From IMG/VR virus record IMGVR_UViG_2565956711_000013, positions 1 to 30,818 of that record: a stretch of 30,818 nt of DNA; one strand, written 5' to 3'. The DNA comes from a virus. Lineage: Duplodnaviria; Heunggongvirae; Uroviricota; Caudoviricetes. The translations under genes and the position numbers were made by a program. The notes below the pieces were generated by a model, which did not search any database, had not been told where the DNA came from, and saw only the letters and a list, made by a program, of their open reading frames with translations. Below, piece by piece: positions 513 to 16,211 of the stretch (the first letter of the stretch is position 1; each line of letters opens with the position of its first letter).

Positions 513-541
513 GGTGAATTTGACTATTTTTTGGTGAAAAG

Positions 542-1579
542 TTAACGCTTATCCGCCACCAGTTTGAGCGCGTGTTCCAGCACATTAATGTCTGCACCCG
601 CTTTATGGGCGTTTTCACTTAAATAACGCCGCCACTGCCGCGCGCCAGGAATACCCTGGAACAAGCCCAACATATGCCGGGTAATATGACCGAGATACGT
701 CCCCTGGCTGAGTTCACGCTCAATGTACGGATACATGGCGCGCACTACCGCCACCGGATCGGCATCGATATCCGAGGAACCAAAGATCTCCCGGTCTACC
801 GCCGCCAGAATACCCGGATTCTGATACGCCTCGCGCCCGACCATCACGCCATCCATATGTTGCAGGTGTGCTTTGGCCTCTTCCAGCGACTTGATACCAC
901 CGTTAATCGACATTGTCAGATGCGGAAAGTCACGCTTCAGTTGATACACACGCGGATAATCGAGCGGCGGGATCTCACGGTTTTCTTTCGGACTTAACCC
1001 CGAAAGCCAGGCTTTACGTGCATGGATGATGAACATCTCACACTCGCCTTTGCCGGAAACGGTGTTGATGAAATCGCAGAGAAATTCATAGCTGTCCTGG
1101 TCGTCGATGCCAATACGCGTTTTCACCGTCACCGGAATCGACACCACATCGCGCATCGCTTTCACGCAGTCGGCAACCAGCTGCGCATTACCCATCAGAC
1201 ACGCACCAAACATGCCGTTCTGCACCCGGTCAGACGGGCAGCCGACATTCAGGTTGATCTCATCATATCCACGCGCTTCTGCCAGCTTCGCACACTGCGC
1301 CAGCGCCGCCGGATCGCTACCGCCGAGTTGCAACGCTACCGGATGTTCTTCTTCACTATACGCCAGGTAATCACCTTTACCGTGAATAATCGCCCCTGTA
1401 GTTACCATTTCAGTATACAGCAACGTATTGCGGGAAAGCAGACGCAAGAAATAGCGGCAATGTCTGTCCGTCCAGTCGAGCATAGGAGCAATGCTAAACC
1501 GAGAACTCCAGTAAGCGCCAGTTTTTTCAGGCATCACGCTGGTTTGATTAGTTTTCTGTGTTTCAGGATTATCGTGCAT
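542..1579 (-). CDS. dusA: tRNA-dihydrouridine synthase A (host gene; its 5' end abuts the prophage integrase)
   Basis: 345-aa ORF with Dus-family TIM-barrel features as I recall them ([17 protein letters not shown] motif); the nearer internal Met (MPEKTG) may be the true start. Confidence 0.9.
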
Positions 1580-2826: not shown

Positions 2827-3075
2827 ATGCGTATTGAGATCTGCATAGCCAAAGAAAAAATGACTAAAATGCCAAACGGTGCTGTGGATGCGTTAAAGGA
2901 AGAATTAACCCGACGCATCAGTAAACGTTATGACGATGTAGAGGTGATCGTAAAAGCCACCAGCAACGATGGGCTTTCTGTTACACGCACCGCAGATAAA
3001 GATTCTGCAAAAACTTTTGTTCAGGAGACTCTGAAAGATACCTGGGAATCTGCTGACGAGTGGTTTGTTCACTAA
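2827..3075 (+). CDS. DinI-like SOS-inducible protein, 82 aa
   Basis: Small acidic protein ([11 protein letters not shown]...[10 protein letters not shown]) resembling the DinI family; preceded by SOS boxes and followed by a terminator. Confidence 0.8.
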
Positions 3076-3143
3076 TTAACACGTAAAATCGGTAACGGCT
3101 GGAAATCATTCAATACTCGCACTATCGAAAGTTCGCCAGCCAG

Positions 3144-3180
3144 CCGCAGCACGTTCTTGCATCCGACGTGCTGCGGTTTT
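3144..3180 (+). terminator. Rho-independent terminator after the DinI-like gene
   Basis: 11-bp perfect stem ccgcagcacgt (3144-3154) pairing acgtgctgcgg (3166-3176), 11-nt loop, then TTTT (3177-3180). Confidence 0.6.
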
Positions 3181-3449
3181 ATATAATCCCGACTGGTCCA
3201 GTTTCCAGACAACCAGGGTGTCTCCTGCCGATAGTGTCCTGAGCAGTTTTTTAAGCCCCGGCCTTTCGGACTTTGTACCGCTTATCTTGTCTTCAAAAAT
3301 CAGCTAGCATCCTGCGCAGTTCAGTGCATTACGTTGCAAATCGGTGTTCTGGTCATTTGTTAATACGCGAACATAGCCAATCCCCCCTCATCTGACAAAA
3401 ACGATAGTGACACTATTGGCTCGTCATTTCTTAATTTTAACGCTAATTA

Positions 3450-3809
3450 CTAAGCTGGAACTGGTGGCCAACTAAATCCAGGAATAATAGCTTCTTCCGC
3501 TGGAATAGATTTAATCTCACGTTTATAGGCCATCCATTTACTCAGACTTTCTTTGTCGCGTTCACTGATATCGCCCAACATCAATTCTGTCCTCCAGTCA
3601 GCAGTAATCATGTCTGCAGAGGCAAGCAGCTCGGCACGTGTTCGCTCAACTGAAGTGACCAGTTCATCGTGAGTTGGTGGAGGGTTTACTATCGCCAGCG
3701 CTTCGGTTTCAGAAATAGCAATTAGCTCTGGCTTGATAAAATCATCCTCACTTCCGTCCTCTGCATATGCATAAACGTTATTGTTCTCATCTTTAAAGTA
3801 CTTCATCAT
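3450..3809 (-). CDS. Tail fiber assembly protein
   Basis: 119-aa ORF directly downstream of the tail fiber gene with a 4-bp overlap; sequence resembles tail fiber assembly chaperones. Confidence 0.75.
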
Positions 3810-4819
3810 TTTAATTCAATCCACTCGATTACATTTCCAAAACTTAACTCAACCATGTAATTGGCACCAGGAGGAACAATAGCACAGGGATATACCCAAG
3901 AAGAAACACCGGCGTAATTTGGAGTATTTCCACCTGCGGCCATAACTCCATTAACTTTTATTTGCACTTCTCCTGATGCCGGAAGATTTACTTTCAAAGA
4001 GATAACCCATGGTTGTTTCGACGTATTTGTGTACGTGATTCCAGGATACTTATCTGTGACGATCTGATACGTTTGATCTATACCGATTAACTGAGACGCT
4101 GTTGCTAACGCGACAACACTGTCACTCTGTGCATGTCGCATATATGGTTTTGTTGCATCATTTCTACTAAAACCAATGACACTGGCTCCATCACCAGTGA
4201 CCATATCATCCAACTCTAGGTATTGGATAACATCATGAATACTAGACTTACCGATGATATCTCGTCCTACCTTCGTAAAATCGGTAAGGTCTGCACTATT
4301 TTCATTGTTGAAATATGGTAGTTTATTAGTTGTTGCGATCAAATTCGCAAGAGCACTCAAAGTGTCATTCGAGTCCTGCTTTTCAGCTAAAGCAGTGCTT
4401 AATTCCTCTTGTGTAGTCAACAAAATTACAGTGTCTGTATCTTGATGCCTGAAATACGGTTTATTTATAACACCTTTACTAAAACCAATGACATTGACTC
4501 CATCACCAATAACAGCATTGGATATTCCAAGGTTTTCGAGAGCTGTTTTCACCGTGCCATCCGATTTGATATCGCCAAACGGATTCTTGCGGCTTAACAG
4601 CAGCGCACGAAGCGCGGTAAGCAGCTGGTCGTGCCGCGCCTTCTCCAGACTGGCACCGGAGGCCTCCACCACGCTGCAAAGTTCTTCCTGCAACATGTCA
4701 AAGTAGTCATCATCCAGATCGGTGGCAGGCGTGCCGGTCTGGGGGTTACCACGGGTAAAACCGTTCTTACCCGCGCCGAACTTATCCTTCTGCGCGGTTT
4801 TCGTGTCTATACGATGCAT
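3806..4819 (-). CDS. Tail fiber protein
   Basis: 337 aa; N-terminal region resembles the conserved N-terminus of P2/Mu-type tail fibers; AT-richer C-terminal part with an internal 312-bp duplication. Confidence 0.75.
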
Positions 4820-7416: not shown

Positions 7417-8495
7417 CAGAACGGGTCCTCCTGTACTCTGGCTTTTTTCTTTTTCCGCGCGCCGGGGGCTTCGGGTTCAGGCAGATAAGCATCAGGCGGG
7501 CCGACACGGATTTCCGTCAGGGTGCCGTTCTGGTCCTGAGTAAACGTGACTTCCGAAACAAGCAGTTCGGTATTGTCGAAACCACAGACCGGATCAAAGA
7601 CAATCACCCGCTGGTTGGGCTGCCACAGCGTACCGTTACCCTGTCGCCAGCCCTGCACCACATAGGTGGTTTCATCCGTCCGCGCCGCCCGTTGTCTGGC
7701 TTCAAAGTCCGCACGGGCAATACAGCCTGCCCCCGTAGCCTGCCCTGTCTGCCTGATATACATCGGACGGTAACGGGCAATAAATGCGTCCTCTGTGCGG
7801 GCCCGCAGCGCGGTGGTGGTGGCCTCACCGAAATCATCGTCGTTTCCGGCACGCTGCCCCGCCACCTGGTAAACAGAAAACCGCTCCCGGATACTCTTCT
7901 CCGTATCGCAGGAAAGGATGTTTTCCCCGAGTACCAGCGCAGTATGTGCCCGCGTTGAGCCAATACCGCCAATCACCAGCCTGCCGTGCGGGTCGTCGTA
8001 AGCCAGTGCCTGCTGCTGACCGAGTATTTTGTTGATTACCTCAATCACCGTTTCACCGTGATCAGGCTGAACATCAGGAATAACACCCGACGGCGCACCG
8101 CTGTTCACCACCTCAATGCCGAAAGGCGCAGCAAGCGCCTGCGCAATCTGCACCAGCGAGCGTCCGTTAAACTGTGTCGGTTCAGCTGCACAGTCAATCA
8201 GGTCAGCCGTCAGACTACGTCCGGCAATACCGGTGCTGACCGAACGGGAATCGTAACGAACGGGCGTCGCCTCCACCCAGCCGGTGATCACCAGCTCATC
8301 ACCAATCAGCACTTCCACTTTTGAACCGTTTTTAATGCGCGGCTGAAGCGTGGTGATACCCTCATCTCCCGGCCACTGGCGGGTGATCTCCACACTGAAA
8401 TCCCGCGCCAGCCGTTCAATACCGGCACCGATGCGCACCGATGTCCAGCCATTCCACTCCCGGCCATTTACCCGTAGCGTGACATTGTCGTTCAT
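7416..8495 (-). CDS. Baseplate hub / tail protein (Mu gp44-like)
   Basis: 359 aa; directly downstream of the DNA-circulation-like gene, as in Mu-like tails. Confidence 0.65.
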   Translation of the reverse strand: MNDNVTLRVNGREWNGWTSVRIGAGIERLARDFSVEITRQWPGDEGITTLQPRIKNGSKVEVLIGDELVITGWVEATPVRYDSRSVSTGIAGRSLTADLIDCAAEPTQFNGRSLVQIAQALAAPFGIEVVNSGAPSGVIPDVQPDHGETVIEVINKILGQQQALAYDDPHGRLVIGGIGSTRAHTALVLGENILSCDTEKSIRERFSVYQVAGQRAGNDDDFGEATTTALRARTEDAFIARYRPMYIRQTGQATGAGCIARADFEARQRAARTDETTYVVQGWRQGNGTLWQPNQRVIVFDPVCGFDNTELLVSEVTFTQDQNGTLTEIRVGPPDAYLPEPEAPGARKKKKARVQEDPF

Positions 8496-9820
8496 TGCAC
8501 TGGCACCTTCAGAGGGATCACCGGCACAAAGCCGGGATGCGTAATGGCATTACGCCGGATAATGTCCGCGTCACGCGCCGCGTTATCAAACCAGGTCGCC
8601 GACAGCACCAGCGCGGGTAAAACCTCATCCGGTGTGCGCTGAATGATCCGTGCAGACTGTTCAAGGCGCGTGTTGATATCCGCATTCAGATCTGCTTTCA
8701 CCCGGCGCAGCGCCAGAAACAGCGCATCGCTGGTTGTACGGGACAACTCCTTATCAATTGCCGTATTCAGTGTGTCGCGAATGTCAGTCAGTTCTTCCCA
8801 CGTTGGCAGGTCAACCGTGTTTTTCACCGCCGGTGCATTGTTCAGTGCCGGATGCGTGACGGAAGGCCAGCCAGTGCTCTGCGCGGGTGTTGTTGCCTGC
8901 CCCACTGCGGAATTCTGCATCACCGCGGAAGTTGTTGGCGCAGGCAATCGGGTGACGGCATACGCCGCTTCGCTGATTGCGGTCGTACGAAGGGTGCTGG
9001 CAACCACGTTACGCTGCTGCGTCGCCGTGGCGGTGGTTTTACTGTCCGTTTTCCAGACGCCGCGCGGTTGCAGATCGCTGCCGAGGCTGACACCGGAAAG
9101 CGTTTTGATCATGGTGACCAGGTCGCTGGCGTTACCATAAAGGCGTTTCCCGGTACGCCACATTTTCTGCACCTGCTCAACGAAATTTTTGCCTGACGAT
9201 GGCGGCGGCAGAAGTACCGAGATATCCCCCTGCAACAGCCTGGCGGCATCCGATACGGCAGAATCCACCACTTTCATCGCATCAGAAACATACCCCAGCA
9301 TTATGCTGGCATTACCGATAACGTCGTTCTGCACGAAATCCGCCACACCATCGATACTGAAACCGCTGAAGCTGTCACTGATGCAGTCATCCAGTGCAGA
9401 ACAGGATGACATCAGCGTCTGCGCCGTCGCCGCACCTGATGTGGGGTAAGAGAGTTCTCCTGCTTCGACAAACTTCAGGTCAAAGCGGACAATACGCCCT
9501 TCACTTTTCGATGTGCTGACCCGAACTTCCCCGTCAACACAGACTTTCAGCTCACCATATGTCGGGTGGACAAGCGTGCCGGGACCGGGTTTATTCAGCG
9601 CTTCAATCAGGCGATCGCGCTGGTCAAAGCAGTCATCTCCCACCACATAAGCTGTGATGGACGGGCGGAAAGTGACTTTTCCCAGATCTTCGGTATAGGG
9701 CTTGTCGCGGTTCGGATATTCGTGTGTTTCCACACGGCGACCGGTTCCCGCACTTTCTTCTTCAACCTTAAACGGTACGCCGCGAAATGACGCATCCTGA
9801 AGCCTGTCTTTCCACGTCAT
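8492..9820 (-). CDS. DNA circulation protein-like tail protein (Mu gpN-like)
   Basis: 442 aa; N-terminus resembles the Mu DNA-circulation family; conserved position in Mu-type tails. Confidence 0.7.
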   Translation of the reverse strand: MTWKDRLQDASFRGVPFKVEEESAGTGRRVETHEYPNRDKPYTEDLGKVTFRPSITAYVVGDDCFDQRDRLIEALNKPGPGTLVHPTYGELKVCVDGEVRVSTSKSEGRIVRFDLKFVEAGELSYPTSGAATAQTLMSSCSALDDCISDSFSGFSIDGVADFVQNDVIGNASIMLGYVSDAMKVVDSAVSDAARLLQGDISVLLPPPSSGKNFVEQVQKMWRTGKRLYGNASDLVTMIKTLSGVSLGSDLQPRGVWKTDSKTTATATQQRNVVASTLRTTAISEAAYAVTRLPAPTTSAVMQNSAVGQATTPAQSTGWPSVTHPALNNAPAVKNTVDLPTWEELTDIRDTLNTAIDKELSRTTSDALFLALRRVKADLNADINTRLEQSARIIQRTPDEVLPALVLSATWFDNAARDADIIRRNAITHPGFVPVIPLKVPVQ

Positions 9821-9833
9821 ATAAACTCCGGAT

Positions 9834-9891
9834 ACAAAAAACCCGCCAAATCTGCTTTGTCAGTTATTTACATCGCAGAAGATGTGGCGGG
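9834..9891 (-). terminator. Possible terminator after the AT-rich cargo gene
   Basis: Minus-strand RNA has cccgcca (plus 9885-9891) pairing tggcggg (plus 9842-9848) around a long loop, followed by UUUUUUGU (plus 9834-9841). Confidence 0.35.
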
Positions 9892-9910
9892 AACCTAATA
9901 TTTTTAATTA

Positions 9911-10405
9911 CTATCTGAGTTGAACATCAATGGAATAAATATTACCACTATTTATAAATTTAGAATCTGTCCTTTCATCAAAAGATTCAAATGACTGTAC
10001 CTTTAAAAACTTTTTCATTTTATTTTCAAAAATACTTTCATTAACACCAGTTAAATACTTGAACGCTCTACCAGCAAGGACCTCATTACTTAAATCCATT
10101 GTGTTTTTATTGTCTTTGAAAAACCAAACAATAACTTTTTGTGGGCATGATGGATTATAAACAGATATATAAAACTGCGGCTCATATTTTTCATCAGCGT
10201 CATCACTAAGCATTTCTTCAGAAGATAATTCTCTTCTGAATTCATATTGCCGCTTAGTTATTCCTTCATCCTTTATTATCTCTTGCTTAACTGGTGCAAT
10301 ACCTATAGAAGAGATTAATTCTGACTCATTAAAGCTGAACTTACACTCTTCCGCAGCCAAGTTAAAAGATAAAAGTGCAGATATAAAAAAAACAAAGATA
10401 CGCAT
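9911..10405 (-). CDS. Hypothetical secreted protein with N-terminal signal peptide; AT-rich cargo gene inside the tail operon
   Basis: ORF 9911..10423; likely start at Met7 (ATG 10403-10405) with GAAGGG 6 nt upstream; hydrophobic N-terminus MRIFVFFISALLSFNLAA then charged mature region; far lower GC than flanking tail genes; no family recognised. Confidence 0.55.
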   Translation of the reverse strand: MRIFVFFISALLSFNLAAEECKFSFNESELISSIGIAPVKQEIIKDEGITKRQYEFRRELSSEEMLSDDADEKYEPQFYISVYNPSCPQKVIVWFFKDNKNTMDLSNEVLAGRAFKYLTGVNESIFENKMKKFLKVQSFESFDERTDSKFINSGNIYSIDVQLR

Positions 10406-10504
10406 AATCATCCCTTCAATCATTTGTAAGGAATGATTATATTAACTACTTAAAGCTGAAAACCCAAATTATGCCAGACAAAAACACATTAATCATTTTG
10501 TACA

Positions 10505-12337
10505 CTACCTGAACCGCGTATAGCCAACATCATGGCTGACATCAAAACCGCTGGATCGCGTTTCCATAACCCGCATACCCGGAGGCGAATTCACAAAAGA
10601 GACCTTGATCTCACCATCAACTTTTGGCACAGAAGCTTTGTTAATCATGAAGGGATTCGAGCCTGTGGCATCGGAGGCGTTTTTTGACTGAGCCGGATCC
10701 ACCGCCGGATAAGGTGTGTATCCCCGCGCCGGTATTCCCGTCCCATAAGCATCATAAGCACCCGCGCCCCACTGCGCAGAGTTAATGGCATCGACCGTGT
10801 CACCGGAACTGTCGGTAAACCACTCAATAATTGGCTTCAGCTTGTCCCACATATCCTGAAACCACTTAACAACCGGTCCCCAGTTATTGATCACCATCCC
10901 CAGCGGCGACCAGGCAAAAACCTTCTTCAGAAGTTCCCAACCTGCCTCAAAATAAGGACCAATGGTTTCCCAGAGCTTCTTGAAATAAGGTCCGACAACA
11001 TCCCAGTTAGTGATAATTAATCCCGCAGCCAGAGCAATCGCCGTCGCAATCATGCCAATCGGCGTCATCGACATAATCCTGCTGACAATACTGATGGCAC
11101 TGCCCACGCCCATCAATCCCAGTTTCAGAATCGCAAGACCGGCAGCAAGCCCGACGACGCCGCGAATAACCCGGGGATTTTCATCCGCAAACTTCGTGAA
11201 TTTCTCCCCCAACTCCCCCAGCCATTGTGTGATATTTTTAGCGTCACCAGAAAATGCGCCGCCAATAGCCGCAAGGCCGTTAGTTGCGGTCCCTGTCATT
11301 GCCTCCCACAGGTTGGACAGCGTACCAAGCTGTGCCTGAACACGTTTATTCAGGCTGGCCTGTTTATTCATCTTCTGCTGGATCTGATCGTAGCCATCCT
11401 TTCCTTTATCGATTAGTGCATTGACCACCTGAAGAGTTTCGGCATCATCACCAAATATTGCCTTAAGTACACCTGTTCGCTTAACGTCGGTCAGTTTTCG
11501 CAGCTTTGCCAGTTGCCTGAACATGTTATCAAGACCGCCAAAACTCCCTTTGCCGTCAGTAAAATCGAGCTGTACCCCGAGTTTCTGGCGGGCCATGATT
11601 TTATTAACGTCCCTGATTTTCTTAACGCTTAATCCGGACTGGATAACTTTTCGCAGGGCATTACCTGCCGACTCCCCGTTCATCCCCATCTGATCCATCA
11701 TGACGCTGATGGGGGCAAGGCTCTGTGCAGCCTGAAGACCATCCTTGTTCACCATCTTCAGAACAGAACTGGTTTTAGTGAAGAAGGACAACATGTTGGT
11801 ATCGTCAACGCCCAGATAAAACGCCTTCTGGATAGTGTCGAACAGCCCCATCATGTCTTCTGACGCCGTTCCGGTAGCATCCTGCATCTTTGCCGCAAAC
11901 TCAGCAGCCGCTTCCGGTGTTTTTTTCAGTTGTACCGCAAGATAAGCTGTCGCTTTACCCACACCACCCAGAATGTTTTCTGCCGGGATCCCCTGACGCA
12001 CCAGCATCTGCATCATGTTCTGGAAATCAGCCGTTGTACCGGGTAGCTGGTTACCCAGGCCAATAGCCAGTTTATTGATGTCCTGAAAGCGCTTTCCAAC
12101 CTCGCCGTTCGCATCCATCATGGCGACTTTCAGCCCGGTGGCGGCGTTTTCCTGATCGGCATAAGATTTCAGGGAAAGCGTCAGACCCGCAGCCAGTCCG
12201 CCACCAAGCGCCAGCCCACCCTGTGACGCTTCTTCCGCCTGGCGTTTAAATCCCCGGATTTTCTTTTGCATTTTCGACAGCGCGGGAGAAAGCCTGTCGA
12301 CACCGGTGATCAACGCCTTAAGCTCAAATTCAGCCAT
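10505..12337 (-). CDS. Tail tape measure protein
   Basis: 610 aa; Ala/Gly-rich with a hydrophobic C-terminal segment; located after the tube and chaperone genes. Confidence 0.8.
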   Translation of the reverse strand: MAEFELKALITGVDRLSPALSKMQKKIRGFKRQAEEASQGGLALGGGLAAGLTLSLKSYADQENAATGLKVAMMDANGEVGKRFQDINKLAIGLGNQLPGTTADFQNMMQMLVRQGIPAENILGGVGKATAYLAVQLKKTPEAAAEFAAKMQDATGTASEDMMGLFDTIQKAFYLGVDDTNMLSFFTKTSSVLKMVNKDGLQAAQSLAPISVMMDQMGMNGESAGNALRKVIQSGLSVKKIRDVNKIMARQKLGVQLDFTDGKGSFGGLDNMFRQLAKLRKLTDVKRTGVLKAIFGDDAETLQVVNALIDKGKDGYDQIQQKMNKQASLNKRVQAQLGTLSNLWEAMTGTATNGLAAIGGAFSGDAKNITQWLGELGEKFTKFADENPRVIRGVVGLAAGLAILKLGLMGVGSAISIVSRIMSMTPIGMIATAIALAAGLIITNWDVVGPYFKKLWETIGPYFEAGWELLKKVFAWSPLGMVINNWGPVVKWFQDMWDKLKPIIEWFTDSSGDTVDAINSAQWGAGAYDAYGTGIPARGYTPYPAVDPAQSKNASDATGSNPFMINKASVPKVDGEIKVSFVNSPPGMRVMETRSSGFDVSHDVGYTRFR

Positions 12338-12497
12338 GTGTGCGTTTCTCCTGCTCTATCCTGTTTGCCTGACTGACCAGCAAGGGAATTTCACTGATCG
12401 GCATACTCAGCAATTCGAAGGGATTAATGCGCCAGTAGCTGGCGCAGTCAAAGAAGCGATCAGTGAGGTATTCAGCCGTCAGGCCTGGAGGAAAAAA
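12330..12497 (-). CDS. -1 frameshift extension of the tail assembly chaperone (GT-like product)
   Basis: The -1 frame is open from the heptamer U_UUU_UUC (plus 12491-12497) to the stop at 12330, overlapping the tape measure start; expected fusion about 139 aa. Confidence 0.55.
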   Translation of the reverse strand, partial: FFPPGLTAEYLTDRFFDCASYWRINPFELLSMPISEIPLLVSQANRIEQEKRTHG

Positions 12498-12748
12498 CCA
12501 GCCACAAGCCACGCCGCTGCATTCAGGTCTGCCGGAGACATCTGGTCGACAGAGCTTTGCGGCACTTTCGCCAGCCGCACAATGTATTTCGACACCACAT
12601 GCGCCAGAAGTTTGACTGACTCATCCTGATTCATCTGGTAGGGATACCCCAGCTCGCGGACATCCTTCCCGGTGGGCTCATCAAACTCCAGTACGGAGAG
12701 TGTCTCGCCATGAGCAGTAATCGGTTTCTTTAACTCAAGCTCTTTCAT
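12479..12748 (-). CDS. Tail assembly chaperone (G-like)
   Basis: 89-aa ORF between the tube and tape measure genes; slippery heptamer near its 3' end. Confidence 0.65.
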   Translation of the reverse strand: MKELELKKPITAHGETLSVLEFDEPTGKDVRELGYPYQMNQDESVKLLAHVVSKYIVRLAKVPQSSVDQMSPADLNAAAWLVAGFFLQA

Positions 12749-13104
12749 TACTGGTAATCCCCTTCTTCACCGTGGAACTCAAGATCAACCGTGCCTTCTT
12801 CGGCATTATGGTTCGCTTCGCCGTGCAGCCAGGCAGACGACAGTACATAGACCTGACCGTTAGCCAGCTCGGCAGTGATGGTCATCTCATCAGACGAGGT
12901 GATTTTGCTCACCGGAAAATTCTTCGGTACCTTGAAGGTCCCTTTGACATAAGGCGCACGGTGAGTTTCCTTGCGGTCCACTGAACCGTCCAGGCCGATG
13001 ATGTCATCATTGACCGTCCTGTTCATGGGCACCTCAATGCCGCCGGTCAGCGATAGCTGCTGACCGTCAATTTTGAAATAACAGGTTCCCCCGATACGGG
13101 CCAT
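12748..13104 (-). CDS. Contractile tail tube protein
   Basis: 118 aa, immediately downstream of the sheath gene with a start/stop overlap. Confidence 0.75.
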   Translation of the reverse strand: MARIGGTCYFKIDGQQLSLTGGIEVPMNRTVNDDIIGLDGSVDRKETHRAPYVKGTFKVPKNFPVSKITSSDEMTITAELANGQVYVLSSAWLHGEANHNAEEGTVDLEFHGEEGDYQ

Positions 13105-14600
13105 TATGCGGACTCCTCTGAATACTGAAGACGGAACTGGTTAACCACGGCAAAGACACGCAACTGGTTAACATAGTCAGGCGGGAACAGCGTGTTCAGG
13201 CGGTTCGGATCGCTGGCATCACGCTCCACAACCAGGTACTGCTTGAACAGTTCGTAGTTTTCCACGATCCCCGCGCGCTCAAGCTGACAGTAGGTTGCCA
13301 GCAGTTCCCCTTTGATCACCGCCGGGGTGACAATCGCCTGACCGGGACCAAAGCGGGTACCGTCGCTGGCAAGCTTGTGACGCCCGTACTTACTGGTAAT
13401 GACGGATTTCAGTTTGCGCAGCACATACGCGCTGGTATGCAGCGTCTCGCTGTCGAGGTAGCTGTTATCCGCAACCCCATAAGCATTTTTCCTGTACGTG
13501 GTGACATCACGCTGAATGCGCAGCACCCCGCTTTCGACATACGCCGTTGCCACGCCATGAGACAGCAGGGTCTGCTGCTCGGTCATCGTGAACCGTTTCC
13601 CCTTCGGCGCAGGCAACATACCCACCAGCTCACCGGTCTGCGTGGGACGTGCCGGATCGTTGCGGATAAACACCGCTGCGCGGGCGGTACGGCTTGCCGC
13701 CAGCTCGTCGGCAGGCGTCTGGGTGTCTTTTTCGTACCCCGCCAGGGTAATGTGCTGCTGGTTAAACTGGTCACCTGCGGTCACCAGTTCTGACAGCGTG
13801 CCGGTCTTTGCCGTATACACATGACCATACAGCTGACGCGCATAGCTCCAGCGACCGCTGGTATCGTTCATCTCGGTCACCAGCGTGTTAACGGAGGCCG
13901 TGTCGTTGAACGGCAGACCGATATAATCAAACGGCTCATCCGCCATTGCAGCCACCGCACCGGTGAGAACAGGAGCGCCCGTTCCGGCGGTCCCCGTCGC
14001 CACGGCAATCTGTACGCCCGCTGGCAGCACTTCGCCCCCACCAAAGCCGTAGTAATTGAGGCTGACAGGAATTTCATTCCCGCAAAGCCCCTTATGACGC
14101 GCGGTCAGTGTGACCACGCCTGCCGAAGATGAGGCCGTAAACGGCAGGGCCGGAACGGCATTGATGGCATCCTTGATACTGCTGGCAATCGTCGTGACGT
14201 TATCGCCGTTGGTCACCGGTGCCTGCACGCGGGTACGTCCCACATAAACATTCACCGTGCCGGTTTCGGTTGCTGCTCCGGTCACCGTCAGCGTAACCGT
14301 TGCCGCCGCGCCTGTGGCTTCCGGAACGGCAATCACATACAGCTCGCCAAACGGGTCGGTCTGGCGATAAGCCTCGACCATACGCGCCAGCTGACTTCCC
14401 GCACCACAAATCTGGCGTGCATAGTCTGCCGACGGCATCAGCACCAGACTGTTGGCAACAATCTCTGCACCGTTATTGGCGTGACCAATCAGCAACGATG
14501 CCCCGCTATCCTGTGCAGTATTCGCTGCCGAGTTATCCATTTCCGCATAAAACAACGGAACCAGCGTATTCGACGGAATGGTGTTAAAGCTTATCGTCAT
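13104..14600 (-). CDS. Contractile tail sheath protein
   Basis: 498 aa; size and sequence character of Mu/P2-type sheath proteins. Confidence 0.8.
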   Translation of the reverse strand: MTISFNTIPSNTLVPLFYAEMDNSAANTAQDSGASLLIGHANNGAEIVANSLVLMPSADYARQICGAGSQLARMVEAYRQTDPFGELYVIAVPEATGAAATVTLTVTGAATETGTVNVYVGRTRVQAPVTNGDNVTTIASSIKDAINAVPALPFTASSSAGVVTLTARHKGLCGNEIPVSLNYYGFGGGEVLPAGVQIAVATGTAGTGAPVLTGAVAAMADEPFDYIGLPFNDTASVNTLVTEMNDTSGRWSYARQLYGHVYTAKTGTLSELVTAGDQFNQQHITLAGYEKDTQTPADELAASRTARAAVFIRNDPARPTQTGELVGMLPAPKGKRFTMTEQQTLLSHGVATAYVESGVLRIQRDVTTYRKNAYGVADNSYLDSETLHTSAYVLRKLKSVITSKYGRHKLASDGTRFGPGQAIVTPAVIKGELLATYCQLERAGIVENYELFKQYLVVERDASDPNRLNTLFPPDYVNQLRVFAVVNQFRLQYSEESA

Positions 14601-14754
14601 CGGTATTCACCTTTTTATTCACGCGCCGGATATCACCCGCTGCTTCACGGCGCAGCCAGTAGTTGTTCTCGTCAACATTTCGCCCTTCGGCGGGCAAAAG
14701 GTCGCCGCGGGCAGGGTCAGGAACTGACCGCCCTTTAACAGGTTTCACAAACAT
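14586..14754 (-). CDS. Possible small ORF (~55 aa) filling the gap upstream of the sheath gene
   Basis: My own translation: ATG at 14752-14754, MFVKPVKGRSVPDPARGDLLPAEGRNVDENNYWLRREAAGDIRRVNKKVNTDDDKL, stop overlapping the sheath start; weak RBS; not in the ORF track (under 60 aa). Confidence 0.25.
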
Positions 14755-14762
14755 GAAGATTC

Positions 14763-15323
14763 TCAGGAAGGAAGGGTTATTTCGGTGTGATGTTCGATAT
14801 CGCCGTCAGGCCCGTTACCGGGATCGAGATAATCAACATCAATCGCCAGCGTTCGCAGTTCATCCAGACTGTTCAGCTCATCCTGCTGGCGGGTATCGTC
14901 TTCGGTCAGCTCGCTGATGACCGAAAAATCGAACTGATAAATCAGCTCATGACGATTCAGATCCAGCAGCGTGCCGCCATCATAGGTAATCGGGTTACCG
15001 CACGATTCCGGGTTCCAGCCCAGCAGGGCCTTAAAGAGCATTTGCCGGACATCGTCCACCACATCATACGAGGCAAACTGACCGCGCTCATCACGCCCGT
15101 TACTCAGTATGACAATCACGGAGAAGCCCTCTTTCAGCTCCTGCCAATAGTCGGTCTGGCTTTTGTTTTCTCCCGGAGAGTCATCACCCGGTACCACATA
15201 CGCCGCCGGGAGTCTCAGCTTTCCGACCTCCGGCAGATTTTTGAACTGTGCCGCGCCTGCCACCCGGTTTTCAAAATACGGGCAGCGGGCACGCAGCGCA
15301 GCAATAACAGGCGTCAGTTTCAT
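14763..15323 (-). CDS. Tail completion / sheath terminator-like protein (family uncertain)
   Basis: 186 aa acidic protein between the head-tail joining genes and the sheath. Confidence 0.5.
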   Translation of the reverse strand: MKLTPVIAALRARCPYFENRVAGAAQFKNLPEVGKLRLPAAYVVPGDDSPGENKSQTDYWQELKEGFSVIVILSNGRDERGQFASYDVVDDVRQMLFKALLGWNPESCGNPITYDGGTLLDLNRHELIYQFDFSVISELTEDDTRQQDELNSLDELRTLAIDVDYLDPGNGPDGDIEHHTEITLPS

Positions 15324-15826
15324 CTGTGTCGTCGCTCCGGCTTCAGTGATTTACGCAATTCCCGCGCCAGAAAATAGCGTGTCCAGCTGCGGTTCTTTTC
15401 AAGCGTTTCCACCATGAAGTTATTACGTGGAGCCAGTCGCCAGCCGCTGCCACCGGATGCACCACGATGATGACTACGACGACGTTTTGCTCCTCCCCGG
15501 ACACCAAAAAACAGAAACGCCGGATAGAAGTCACCAGAGATCATCCGGTTCCCCTTCCCGTTGCGCTGGTTAGGGGCAATGCGTGTCATAAAACCGGCTC
15601 GCTTTTTACTGGCTCTCGGCACCATATAACCAATCGAACGAGCCAGGCGTCCGGTCTGATAACCGGGGTTTTCACCCGGTGCCGACCGCGCACGGCGCAT
15701 CACCAGCCGACGGGCATCACGCATATGACGCTGCCCAATCGTGACAAACGCCCGCCGGACACGGGCGCGGTTAAAACGCATCTCCGCGGGCTGCTGAACA
15801 TCAACGTGAAAAAAGGGAGTCGCCAT
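15320..15826 (-). CDS. HK97 gp10-like head-tail joining protein
   Basis: 168 aa basic protein; position and composition fit the HK97 gp10 family. Confidence 0.55.
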   Translation of the reverse strand: MATPFFHVDVQQPAEMRFNRARVRRAFVTIGQRHMRDARRLVMRRARSAPGENPGYQTGRLARSIGYMVPRASKKRAGFMTRIAPNQRNGKGNRMISGDFYPAFLFFGVRGGAKRRRSHHRGASGGSGWRLAPRNNFMVETLEKNRSWTRYFLARELRKSLKPERRHR

Positions 15827-16211
15827 TGCTGCCTCCGTGACTCTGCGTAAATTCGCCCAGCTCCGTACACTCCAGCAGCAGAAAGCGCCGCGCCCCGTTC
15901 AGATCGCGCTGACGTTTCACCCGGTACACACTGTCATCACAGACCACCTCATAATCAGCAGTGATCCCCCGGCGGTAGCGAATGGTGATGTAATGGGTGA
16001 TGGCATCTCCGGTCTGCGCGGTTTCCTGCAAGGTGGTGGCACTGGTCTGGATAACCTTCGCCCATGCCCGGAACGCAACCGGGTATTGAGGCTCCACGCC
16101 AAAGTTATCCGCGGGCATATCCACCCGCTGGCGGATCAGGACGCGTTTATTAAGTTCGCCGGGATCCGGCAGAATGTAGGTTGCGCTGGTCTGCGCCTGA
16201 CGAATTTTCAT
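15801..16211 (-). CDS. Head-tail adaptor / head closure protein
   Basis: 136 aa; conserved position after the connector gene. Confidence 0.55.
   Translation of the reverse strand: MKIRQAQTSATYILPDPGELNKRVLIRQRVDMPADNFGVEPQYPVAFRAWAKVIQTSATTLQETAQTGDAITHYITIRYRRGITADYEVVCDDSVYRVKRQRDLNGARRFLLLECTELGEFTQSHGGSNGDSLFSR

Follow-up and report, generated by a model that had tools for sequence, protein, structure and literature searches.

The closest described counterparts of the gene analysed here are orf10 of Shigella phage SfV, gp38 of phage Mu, which is the founder of the Pfam family DUF2635, and a gene of the Rp4 R-tailocins of Pseudomonas. The gene itself is a small open reading frame (ORF) on the minus strand of a 30,818-nucleotide (nt) stretch of DNA, positions 1 to 30,818 of IMG/VR record IMGVR_UViG_2565956711_000013 (hereafter, the window, that is, the whole stretch). 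It starts with an ATG at 14754..14752, ends with a TAA at 14586..14584, adjoins the tail sheath gene, and encodes a protein of 56 amino acids (aa), MFVKPVKGRSVPDPARGDLLPAEGRNVDENNYWLRREAAGDIRRVNKKVNTDDDKL. The window is an SfV-like prophage, and the 801 nt around the small ORF are 98.1% identical to SfV and 100% identical to an Escherichia coli chromosome. The initial annotation, made without database searches, listed a possible, perhaps spurious, ORF of about 55 aa at 14586-14754 upstream of the sheath gene; the ORF is almost certainly a real DUF2635 gene, and its coordinates and length had been given correctly within 2 nt and one codon, respectively.

Comparison with described systems

The orf10 protein of SfV (NP_599042), annotated in RefSeq as 'similar to phage Mu GP38', is 100% identical to the small-ORF protein, as are its counterparts in SfI, SfII, vB_EcoM-720R4 and SKA5; in this group, the neighbours of the gene are shared as well, identity across the 801 nt around it is 96.6-98.1%, and there is no difference of substance from the window gene. 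Mu gp38 (Mup38, AAF01116) belongs to the same family (78.9 bits on the DUF2635 profile, PF10948), likewise lies between the terminator (gp37/K) and sheath (gp39/L) genes and overlaps the sheath start, but shares only 42% identity with the window protein and, at 67 aa, has a longer tail. Mu gp38 is a divergent member of the family, deviating from the consensus at several positions that otherwise hardly vary (R9K, P12R, R16T, G17M, D18K, P21A, R25E, V27K); furthermore, the Mu terminator belongs to PF08873, in contrast to PF23840 in the window. In GenBank AF083977, Mu_38 is labelled 'putative sheath terminator protein', a label that carries no reference. No sequence or fold similarity to known terminators was found that would back this label, and in the cryo-electron microscopy structure, Mu gp37 alone caps the tube and the sheath (PMC11915804).

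The Rp4 R-tailocin gene (PFL_1215 / PflQ8_1132, orf10 of strain Q8r1-96) belongs to the same four-gene block and is the only member of the family with peptide evidence; it differs from the window gene in that it resides in a headless bacteriocin cluster, has a stronger Shine-Dalgarno (SD) sequence (-6.4 kcal/mol) and overlaps both neighbours. The role that this label implies, at the head-proximal end of a contractile tail, is played elsewhere by T4 gp15 and gp3 and P2 gpS and gpR, sheath and tube terminators or tail completion proteins of 150-270 aa that form ordered hexameric rings in structures; no sequence or fold similarity was found between these and the window protein, the domain of which comprises 46 residues and was not resolved in the Mu study. 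A tail assembly chaperone (Phage_TAC_7, of the Mu gp41 / lambda gpG-GT type) was considered as well and rejected, given that the small ORF has neither the position of such a gene, between the tube and tape-measure genes and with a frameshift extension, nor its PF10109-type sequence and that this role is filled by the gene at 12479..12748.

Evidence for a conserved gene

On the DUF2635 profile, the small-ORF protein scores 60.9 bits (E = 9.8e-17), above the curated gathering threshold of 26.6, with residues 3-47 aligned to profile positions 1-45 of 46, and also matches PHROG 208 (E = 3.6e-26), whereas no NCBIfam model matches it. When the protein was compared with phage Mu using tblastn, the hit landed on Mu_38, with 42.3% identity over residues 3-54 (E = 9e-7). 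By alignments A1 and A2, the window protein has all of the family motif residues P5, D13-P14, G17, L20-P21, G24-R25, Y32-W33, R35-R36 and G40-D41, and its length falls within the roughly 50-75 aa expected of a family member, the family median being 67 aa. An exhaustive profile search yielded 1,969 cluster representatives at E of 0.001 or better. The region is present in 1,088 of the 5,426 complete E. coli genomes, where the gene is annotated as 'DUF2635 domain-containing protein'. By every test of DUF2635 membership that we applied, the ORF belongs to the family and, in this respect, is an ordinary finding.

The initial annotation had proposed examination of the frame in related Mu-like tail modules, with stop codons or frameshifts in close relatives speaking against a gene. 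No stops or frameshifts were found in the compared relatives: SfV, ST64B, EPP-1, phiP27, AH07, YeP1, Mu and a Pseudomonas tailocin each have an intact frame that is under purifying selection. It stays open in every one of the eight relatives compared, which holds for none of the other five frames. The ratio of nonsynonymous to synonymous substitution rates (dN/dS) is 0.11-0.30 in comparisons with ST64B, EPP-1 and phiP27 (dS 0.66-0.75; dN 0.08-0.20). Among 80 IMG/VR contigs that encode an identical protein, there are 30 nucleotide versions of the gene, with all the variation at third positions, although these loci were chosen for 100% protein identity, so that this point is weak and, in part, an artefact. 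The first methionine is conserved and the GTG at codon 3 is synonymously variable, which identifies the ATG at 14754 as the true start.

The length of the ORF alone is no proof of a gene because, when the interval is shuffled, open stretches of 50 or more codons starting with ATG turn up in one frame or another in about 10% of cases. Together with the shortness of the ORF and its weak SD, this is what could be said for a chance open frame in an untranslated intergenic gap. The homology detected with Pfam and PHROG and the pattern of substitutions take the ORF beyond chance, and conservation across bacterial classes and peptides from an orthologue (see below) point in the same direction. The earlier suspicion that the ORF might be spurious is thus refuted by homology and dN/dS, and we give it virtually no credence. 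The high GC (guanine plus cytosine) content that accompanied this suspicion is not observed either: the GC fraction of the ORF is 0.53, against 0.52 locally, 0.519 for the window on average and 0.58-0.62 in the sheath gene.

The tail gene block

All the morphogenesis genes of the window are on the minus strand. The small ORF, its parts and its neighbours are as follows (the basis of each assignment is given in parentheses).

14584..14754, minus strand: DUF2635 / Mu gp38-family coding sequence, 56 aa plus TAA (ORF list, Pfam, PHROG, identity to SfV orf10, dN/dS)
14617..14754, minus strand: codons 1-46, conserved folded domain (AlphaFold2 and alignment A1)
14587..14616, minus strand: codons 47-56, variable, disordered, charged C-terminal tail (predicted local distance difference test score (pLDDT), family alignment)
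14608..14613, minus strand: SD sequence of the sheath gene, AAGGTG, inside the 3' end of the small ORF (sequence)
14755..14762, minus strand: 8-nt spacer from the terminator TGA to the small-ORF ATG, with no usable SD (sequence)
14763..15323, minus strand: tail terminator gene, 186 aa, upstream neighbour (Pfam PF23840 Phage_tail_terminator, E = 3.3e-26)
13104..14600, minus strand: tail sheath gene of the Mu gpL type, 498 aa, downstream neighbour (Pfam Phage_sheath_1, domII and 1C; PHROG 165, E = 3.7e-232)
12748..13104, minus strand: tail tube gene, 118 aa, completing the four-gene block (Pfam Tail_tube PF10618, E = 2.4e-33)

The gap that drew attention to the ORF does exist upstream of the sheath gene, with the terminator coding sequence ending at 14763 and the sheath ATG at 14600..14598, and the reported overlap of the ORF with the sheath start amounts to 17 nt. 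It was, however, described as the only gap in the tail operon, which is too loose a statement, because there are two other such stretches, 12338-12747, with the 89-aa chaperone gene, and 9821-10504, with a low-GC insert (see below). The gap before the sheath gene is occupied by a standard gene and is not an unexplained interval.

We compared the window with 13 other loci, namely those of ST64B, phiP27, EPP-1, AH07, YeP1, Mu, BgVeeders33, phiNP, PG1, BZS1, phiAP1, PBb002 and the P. fluorescens Q8r1-96 tailocin. The order of a terminator (or terminator-sized) gene, DUF2635, a Mu-type sheath gene and a tube gene is constant in 14/14 loci, which bears out the earlier placement of the ORF in a Mu-like tail module. 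The heads associated with these tails are HK97-like (the SfV group), Mu gpT-like or lambda E/D-like, and the tailocin cluster has no head genes. Given that the heads vary and one cluster is headless while the order of the block is constant, the DUF2635 gene travels with the tail. The type of sheath is constant, whereas the family of the upstream protein varies (PF23840, PF08873 or no Pfam match): a terminator match in Pfam was obtained in 7 of the 11 loci tested, and the other four encode a protein of the same size without a match.

Some deposited phage records still miss the DUF2635 gene, although the ORF is intact; these are phiP27 (NC_003356 / AJ298298), SfIV (KC814930, NC_022749) and VIT_AJPSC (OR799564). 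The phiP27 copy (positions 796..957 of locus L003) scores 68 bits on PF10948.

Translation signals

The ribosome-binding site (RBS) of the small ORF is indeed weak, as the initial annotation had it, with the best anti-SD duplex at -2.7 kcal/mol, compared to -6.9 for the sheath, -8.6 for the tube and -5.8 for the terminator gene. The ATG sits 8 nt past the terminator TGA, and the small ORF is probably translated by coupling to the upstream terminator gene, with which the weak RBS is compatible. At the other end, the 3' DNA of the small ORF doubles as the RBS of the sheath gene, with the AAGGTG located 7 nt from the sheath ATG, and in 12 of the 14 loci, the sheath SD is stronger than that of the DUF2635 gene. 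A low copy number of the protein could be read from the weak SD, but the Pseudomonas orthologue is abundant in tailocin proteomics, so we rejected this reading, which holds, at most, for RBSs of the SfV type.

These features could also be explained if the ORF were nothing but a translational-coupling spacer, through which ribosomes are passed from the terminator to the sheath gene and which houses the sheath RBS, with the peptide itself being functionless. The tight spacing on both sides in 14/14 loci (-14 to +9 nt from the terminator stop to the DUF2635 start, and -17 to +6 nt from the DUF2635 stop to the sheath start), the location of the sheath SD within the 3' end of the ORF and the weakness of the ORF's own SD all fit this explanation. 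However, the spacer-like behaviour is limited to the last ~10 codons; the amino acid sequence has been preserved across Escherichia, Pseudomonas, Burkholderia, Bordetella and Acetobacter, some of its residues are invariant, and the dN/dS values given above are low; a fold is confidently predicted with AlphaFold; and the domain is also fused to other proteins away from any sheath gene. We therefore regard a functionless spacer as highly improbable.

Predicted fold and the C-terminal tail

With an alignment of 42 sequences, AlphaFold2 predicts a fold of 46 residues consisting of short strands, a helix at 31-39 and a final strand at 42-45, followed by disorder from residue 49. The mean pLDDT is 85, with values of 93-97 over residues 1-40 and below 50 for residues 49-56. 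Invariant in alignment A1 are P5, D13, P14, R16, G17, L20, P21, G24, R25, V27, Y32, W33, R35 and R36. A PDB sequence search, with the single protein as well as with the 42-sequence profile, yielded no match even at E up to 10, and a fold search with the model gave no significant structural neighbour; the C-terminal domain of lambda gpFI (2LSM), the N-domain of Bacillus subtilis YqbF (2HJQ) and the L9 N-domain are set among the closest known systems.

The C-terminal tails are hypervariable across the family, with an abundance of A, K, E and P. In the DUF2635 proteins, the ends in which K, G, E and A are frequent coincide with the purine-rich RBS of the sheath gene (14587-14616 in the window, and the 3' ends in loci L002-L008 and L093-L098). 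Part of the composition of the tail may thus be dictated by the sheath RBS rather than by protein function. A functional basic C-terminus was discounted for this reason, namely that the K-, G- and E-rich ends overlie the RBS.

Domain fusions and a possible docking role

Among the matches listed for the 1,969 cluster representatives, the domain is N-terminal in 150/150. What follows it is hypervariable, ranging from a few residues, through low-complexity tails rich in A, K, E and P, to whole proteins. In P0234 (756 aa; positions 10001..12271 of locus L009), DUF2635 is followed by a tail-fibre body (PHROG 4201, E = 1.7e-79) and a SASA esterase, and takes the place of the N-terminal part of the fibre protein. 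The gene lies past the gp45-gp48 baseplate genes and the first fibre gene of a Mu-like prophage of the alphaproteobacterial type (IMGVR_UViG_2585427600_000002 / GCA_900141905.1), which also carries a free 58-aa DUF2635 gene that overlaps the sheath start (positions 538..714 of locus L099). P0185 shares the N-terminal layout of P0234 and resembles it in gene neighbourhood. In P0150 (402 aa; positions 3036..4244 of locus L012), DUF2635 is joined to an fn3 domain; this gene, which has no sheath context, is flanked by the head-tail adaptor and head-closure genes in the contig of an HK97-type phage, and the next protein (441 aa) has no PHROG match. The fused copies retain most of the nearly invariant residues.

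The N-terminal domain of a fibre is the part that holds the fibre on the particle, and DUF2635 is therefore read most simply as a domain that binds to a conserved surface of tails of the Mu type. Under this model, the first ~46 residues would fold into a small docking domain, most likely bound at the head-proximal end, where the terminator meets the last sheath ring, as a low-copy accessory; the short charged C-terminal tail would project into the solvent and serve mostly as a spacer, with its DNA acting as the sheath RBS. As the family has neither a sequence match in the PDB nor a significant fold match, the binding partner is entirely inferred. We regard a docking module on the Mu-type tail as evenly poised between right and wrong, and a permanent low-copy adaptor in the particle as evenly poised at best, whereas the specific site at the terminator and last sheath ring is doubtful. 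A more speculative extension, which we consider rather unlikely, is that DUF2635 is a portable docking module: free copies would occupy or prime the tail site, and some phages would have fused a fibre and esterase or an fn3 domain to it in order to hang host-recognition hardware there. If DUF2635 is a docking module, it could be a handle by which new receptor-binding proteins are attached. No paper describing such a module was found in the literature searched, and a search on DUF2635 and Mup38 returned nothing relevant.

The same fusions bear on another possibility, namely that the product is a small regulator that binds nucleic acids, such as an RNA-binding protein by which sheath translation is tuned. 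We consider this improbable: there would be no sense in fusing a regulator to a fibre, an esterase or fn3, none of the fold scores reaches significance, and the orthologue co-fractionates abundantly with tailocin particles. Moreover, Rfam detects no family in the region, and promoter- and terminator-like sites there are no more frequent than in shuffles, with the single terminator-like match (14930-14949, inside the terminator coding sequence) within the shuffle expectation.

Expression and presence in particles

Tail assembly chaperones are not part of the finished tail, and this is relevant for the interpretation of the tailocin data. In the Rp4 tailocins, orthogroup OG0000019 is described as a gene of 182 nt that is flanked by the terminator-like gene and the sheath gene (Carim et al. 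2021, PMC8319346); it includes PflQ8_1132, which is a DUF2635 protein by our search (67.3 bits). As tabulated in Table S4 of that study, the Pse04 member was detected with 93.3% coverage, 69 spectra and a normalized spectral abundance factor (NSAF) of 0.026, compared to 0.018 for the terminator and 0.051 for the sheath in the same preparation (PMC8319346).

Several observations weigh against a permanent place of the protein in the particle. The tailocin preparation is given as a crude 30% ammonium-sulfate cut with 15.6% tailocin protein, and the orthologue of the assembly chaperone was the most abundant Rp4 protein in it, with an NSAF of 0.054 (PMC8319346). Because the preparation was crude and the chaperone even more abundant, the detection of the DUF2635 protein demonstrates expression rather than residence in the particle. 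In the cryo-electron microscopy structures of Mu (3.3-3.5 A; neck, tail and baseplate modelled), gp38 could not be resolved (PMC11915804), although it is listed there among the 'probably structural proteins' and gp37 alone caps the tube and the sheath. Finally, the 24-protein virion proteome of Agrobacterium phage 7-7-1, in which gp124, gp126, gp127 and a 3.2-kDa protein were detected, does not include gp125.

The last point depends on a remote relationship. In BFVD, the model is matched best by an uncharacterised 7-7-1 protein of 68 aa (TM 0.68, E = 0.085, Foldseek probability 0.99), which we take to be gp125, without a check of the accession. The gp125 protein (68 aa; positions 3733..3939 of locus L100) is encoded between a 179-aa structural protein and the sheath and has no Pfam match. 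If the BFVD match is gp125, the latter is a putative remote relative in the equivalent position, and the DUF2635 family is probably wider than the Pfam model.

These observations are accommodated if the protein is a transient assembly factor that binds unassembled sheath, or the growing or finished tail end, and is released before maturation, thus not being structural; for instance, it could prevent polysheath formation, help the terminator to cap the sheath, or hold the tail end until the head joins. Such a factor is a serious possibility, albeit one that we think is probably not the answer. The domain with most of its conserved residues forms the N-terminus of fibre/esterase and fn3 proteins, which must stay attached; not being resolved in Mu differs from being absent; and six flexible copies are easily missed by gel-slice mass spectrometry. 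The fibre and fn3 fusions together with the tailocin peptides are modest new leads on the function of the family.

Significance for Mu-type tails

The analysis establishes a genuine, expressed and conserved tail-module gene that is packed tightly against its neighbours, and it effectively excludes that the ORF is spurious, encodes a regulator or is no more than a coupling spacer. The gene is already known, as SfV orf10, Mu gp38, Pfam DUF2635 and PHROG 208, and is routinely named by the NCBI Prokaryotic Genome Annotation Pipeline (PGAP). Nevertheless, gp38/DUF2635 is among the last unassigned genes of the Mu-type tail module. Many prophages use this module, as do the Rp4 tailocins, which are being developed as precision antibacterials. 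The parts list of the Mu-type tail would be complete once it is known which of the two the protein is, a structural adaptor or an assembly factor.

Other features of the window

Two ORFs on the plus strand, antisense to the small ORF (14578..14727 and 14481..14738), are not conserved in the relatives compared. An island of 28-34% GC (9821-10504) separates the tape-measure gene (10505..12337) from the DNA-circulation gene (8492..9820) and contains an ORF of 170 aa on the minus strand (9911..10423), with a hydrophobic, signal-peptide-like N-terminus and without a Pfam match. This ORF resembles a 'moron', a cargo gene that has been placed within the tail operon; the island is absent from SfV, present in SKA5, and found in 85 of the 5,426 E. 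coli genomes, compared to 1,088 for the DUF2635 region.

The 3' end of the gene for the tail assembly chaperone (12479..12748, minus strand, 89 aa; PF10109, E = 1e-16) overlaps an ORF of 60 aa that is read in a different frame of the same strand (12330..12512) and reaches the start of the tape-measure gene. Judged by the arrangement of the two frames, this layout would be that expected for a programmed frameshift product; in Mu, the gp41/Mu_56 frameshift is verified according to a note in AF083977. In the head-closure gene (15801..16211, minus strand), the longest ORF, of 136 aa, has no SD (duplex at +1.9 kcal/mol), and SfV annotates the 98-aa orf7 at the equivalent place; the true start of this gene is probably internal.

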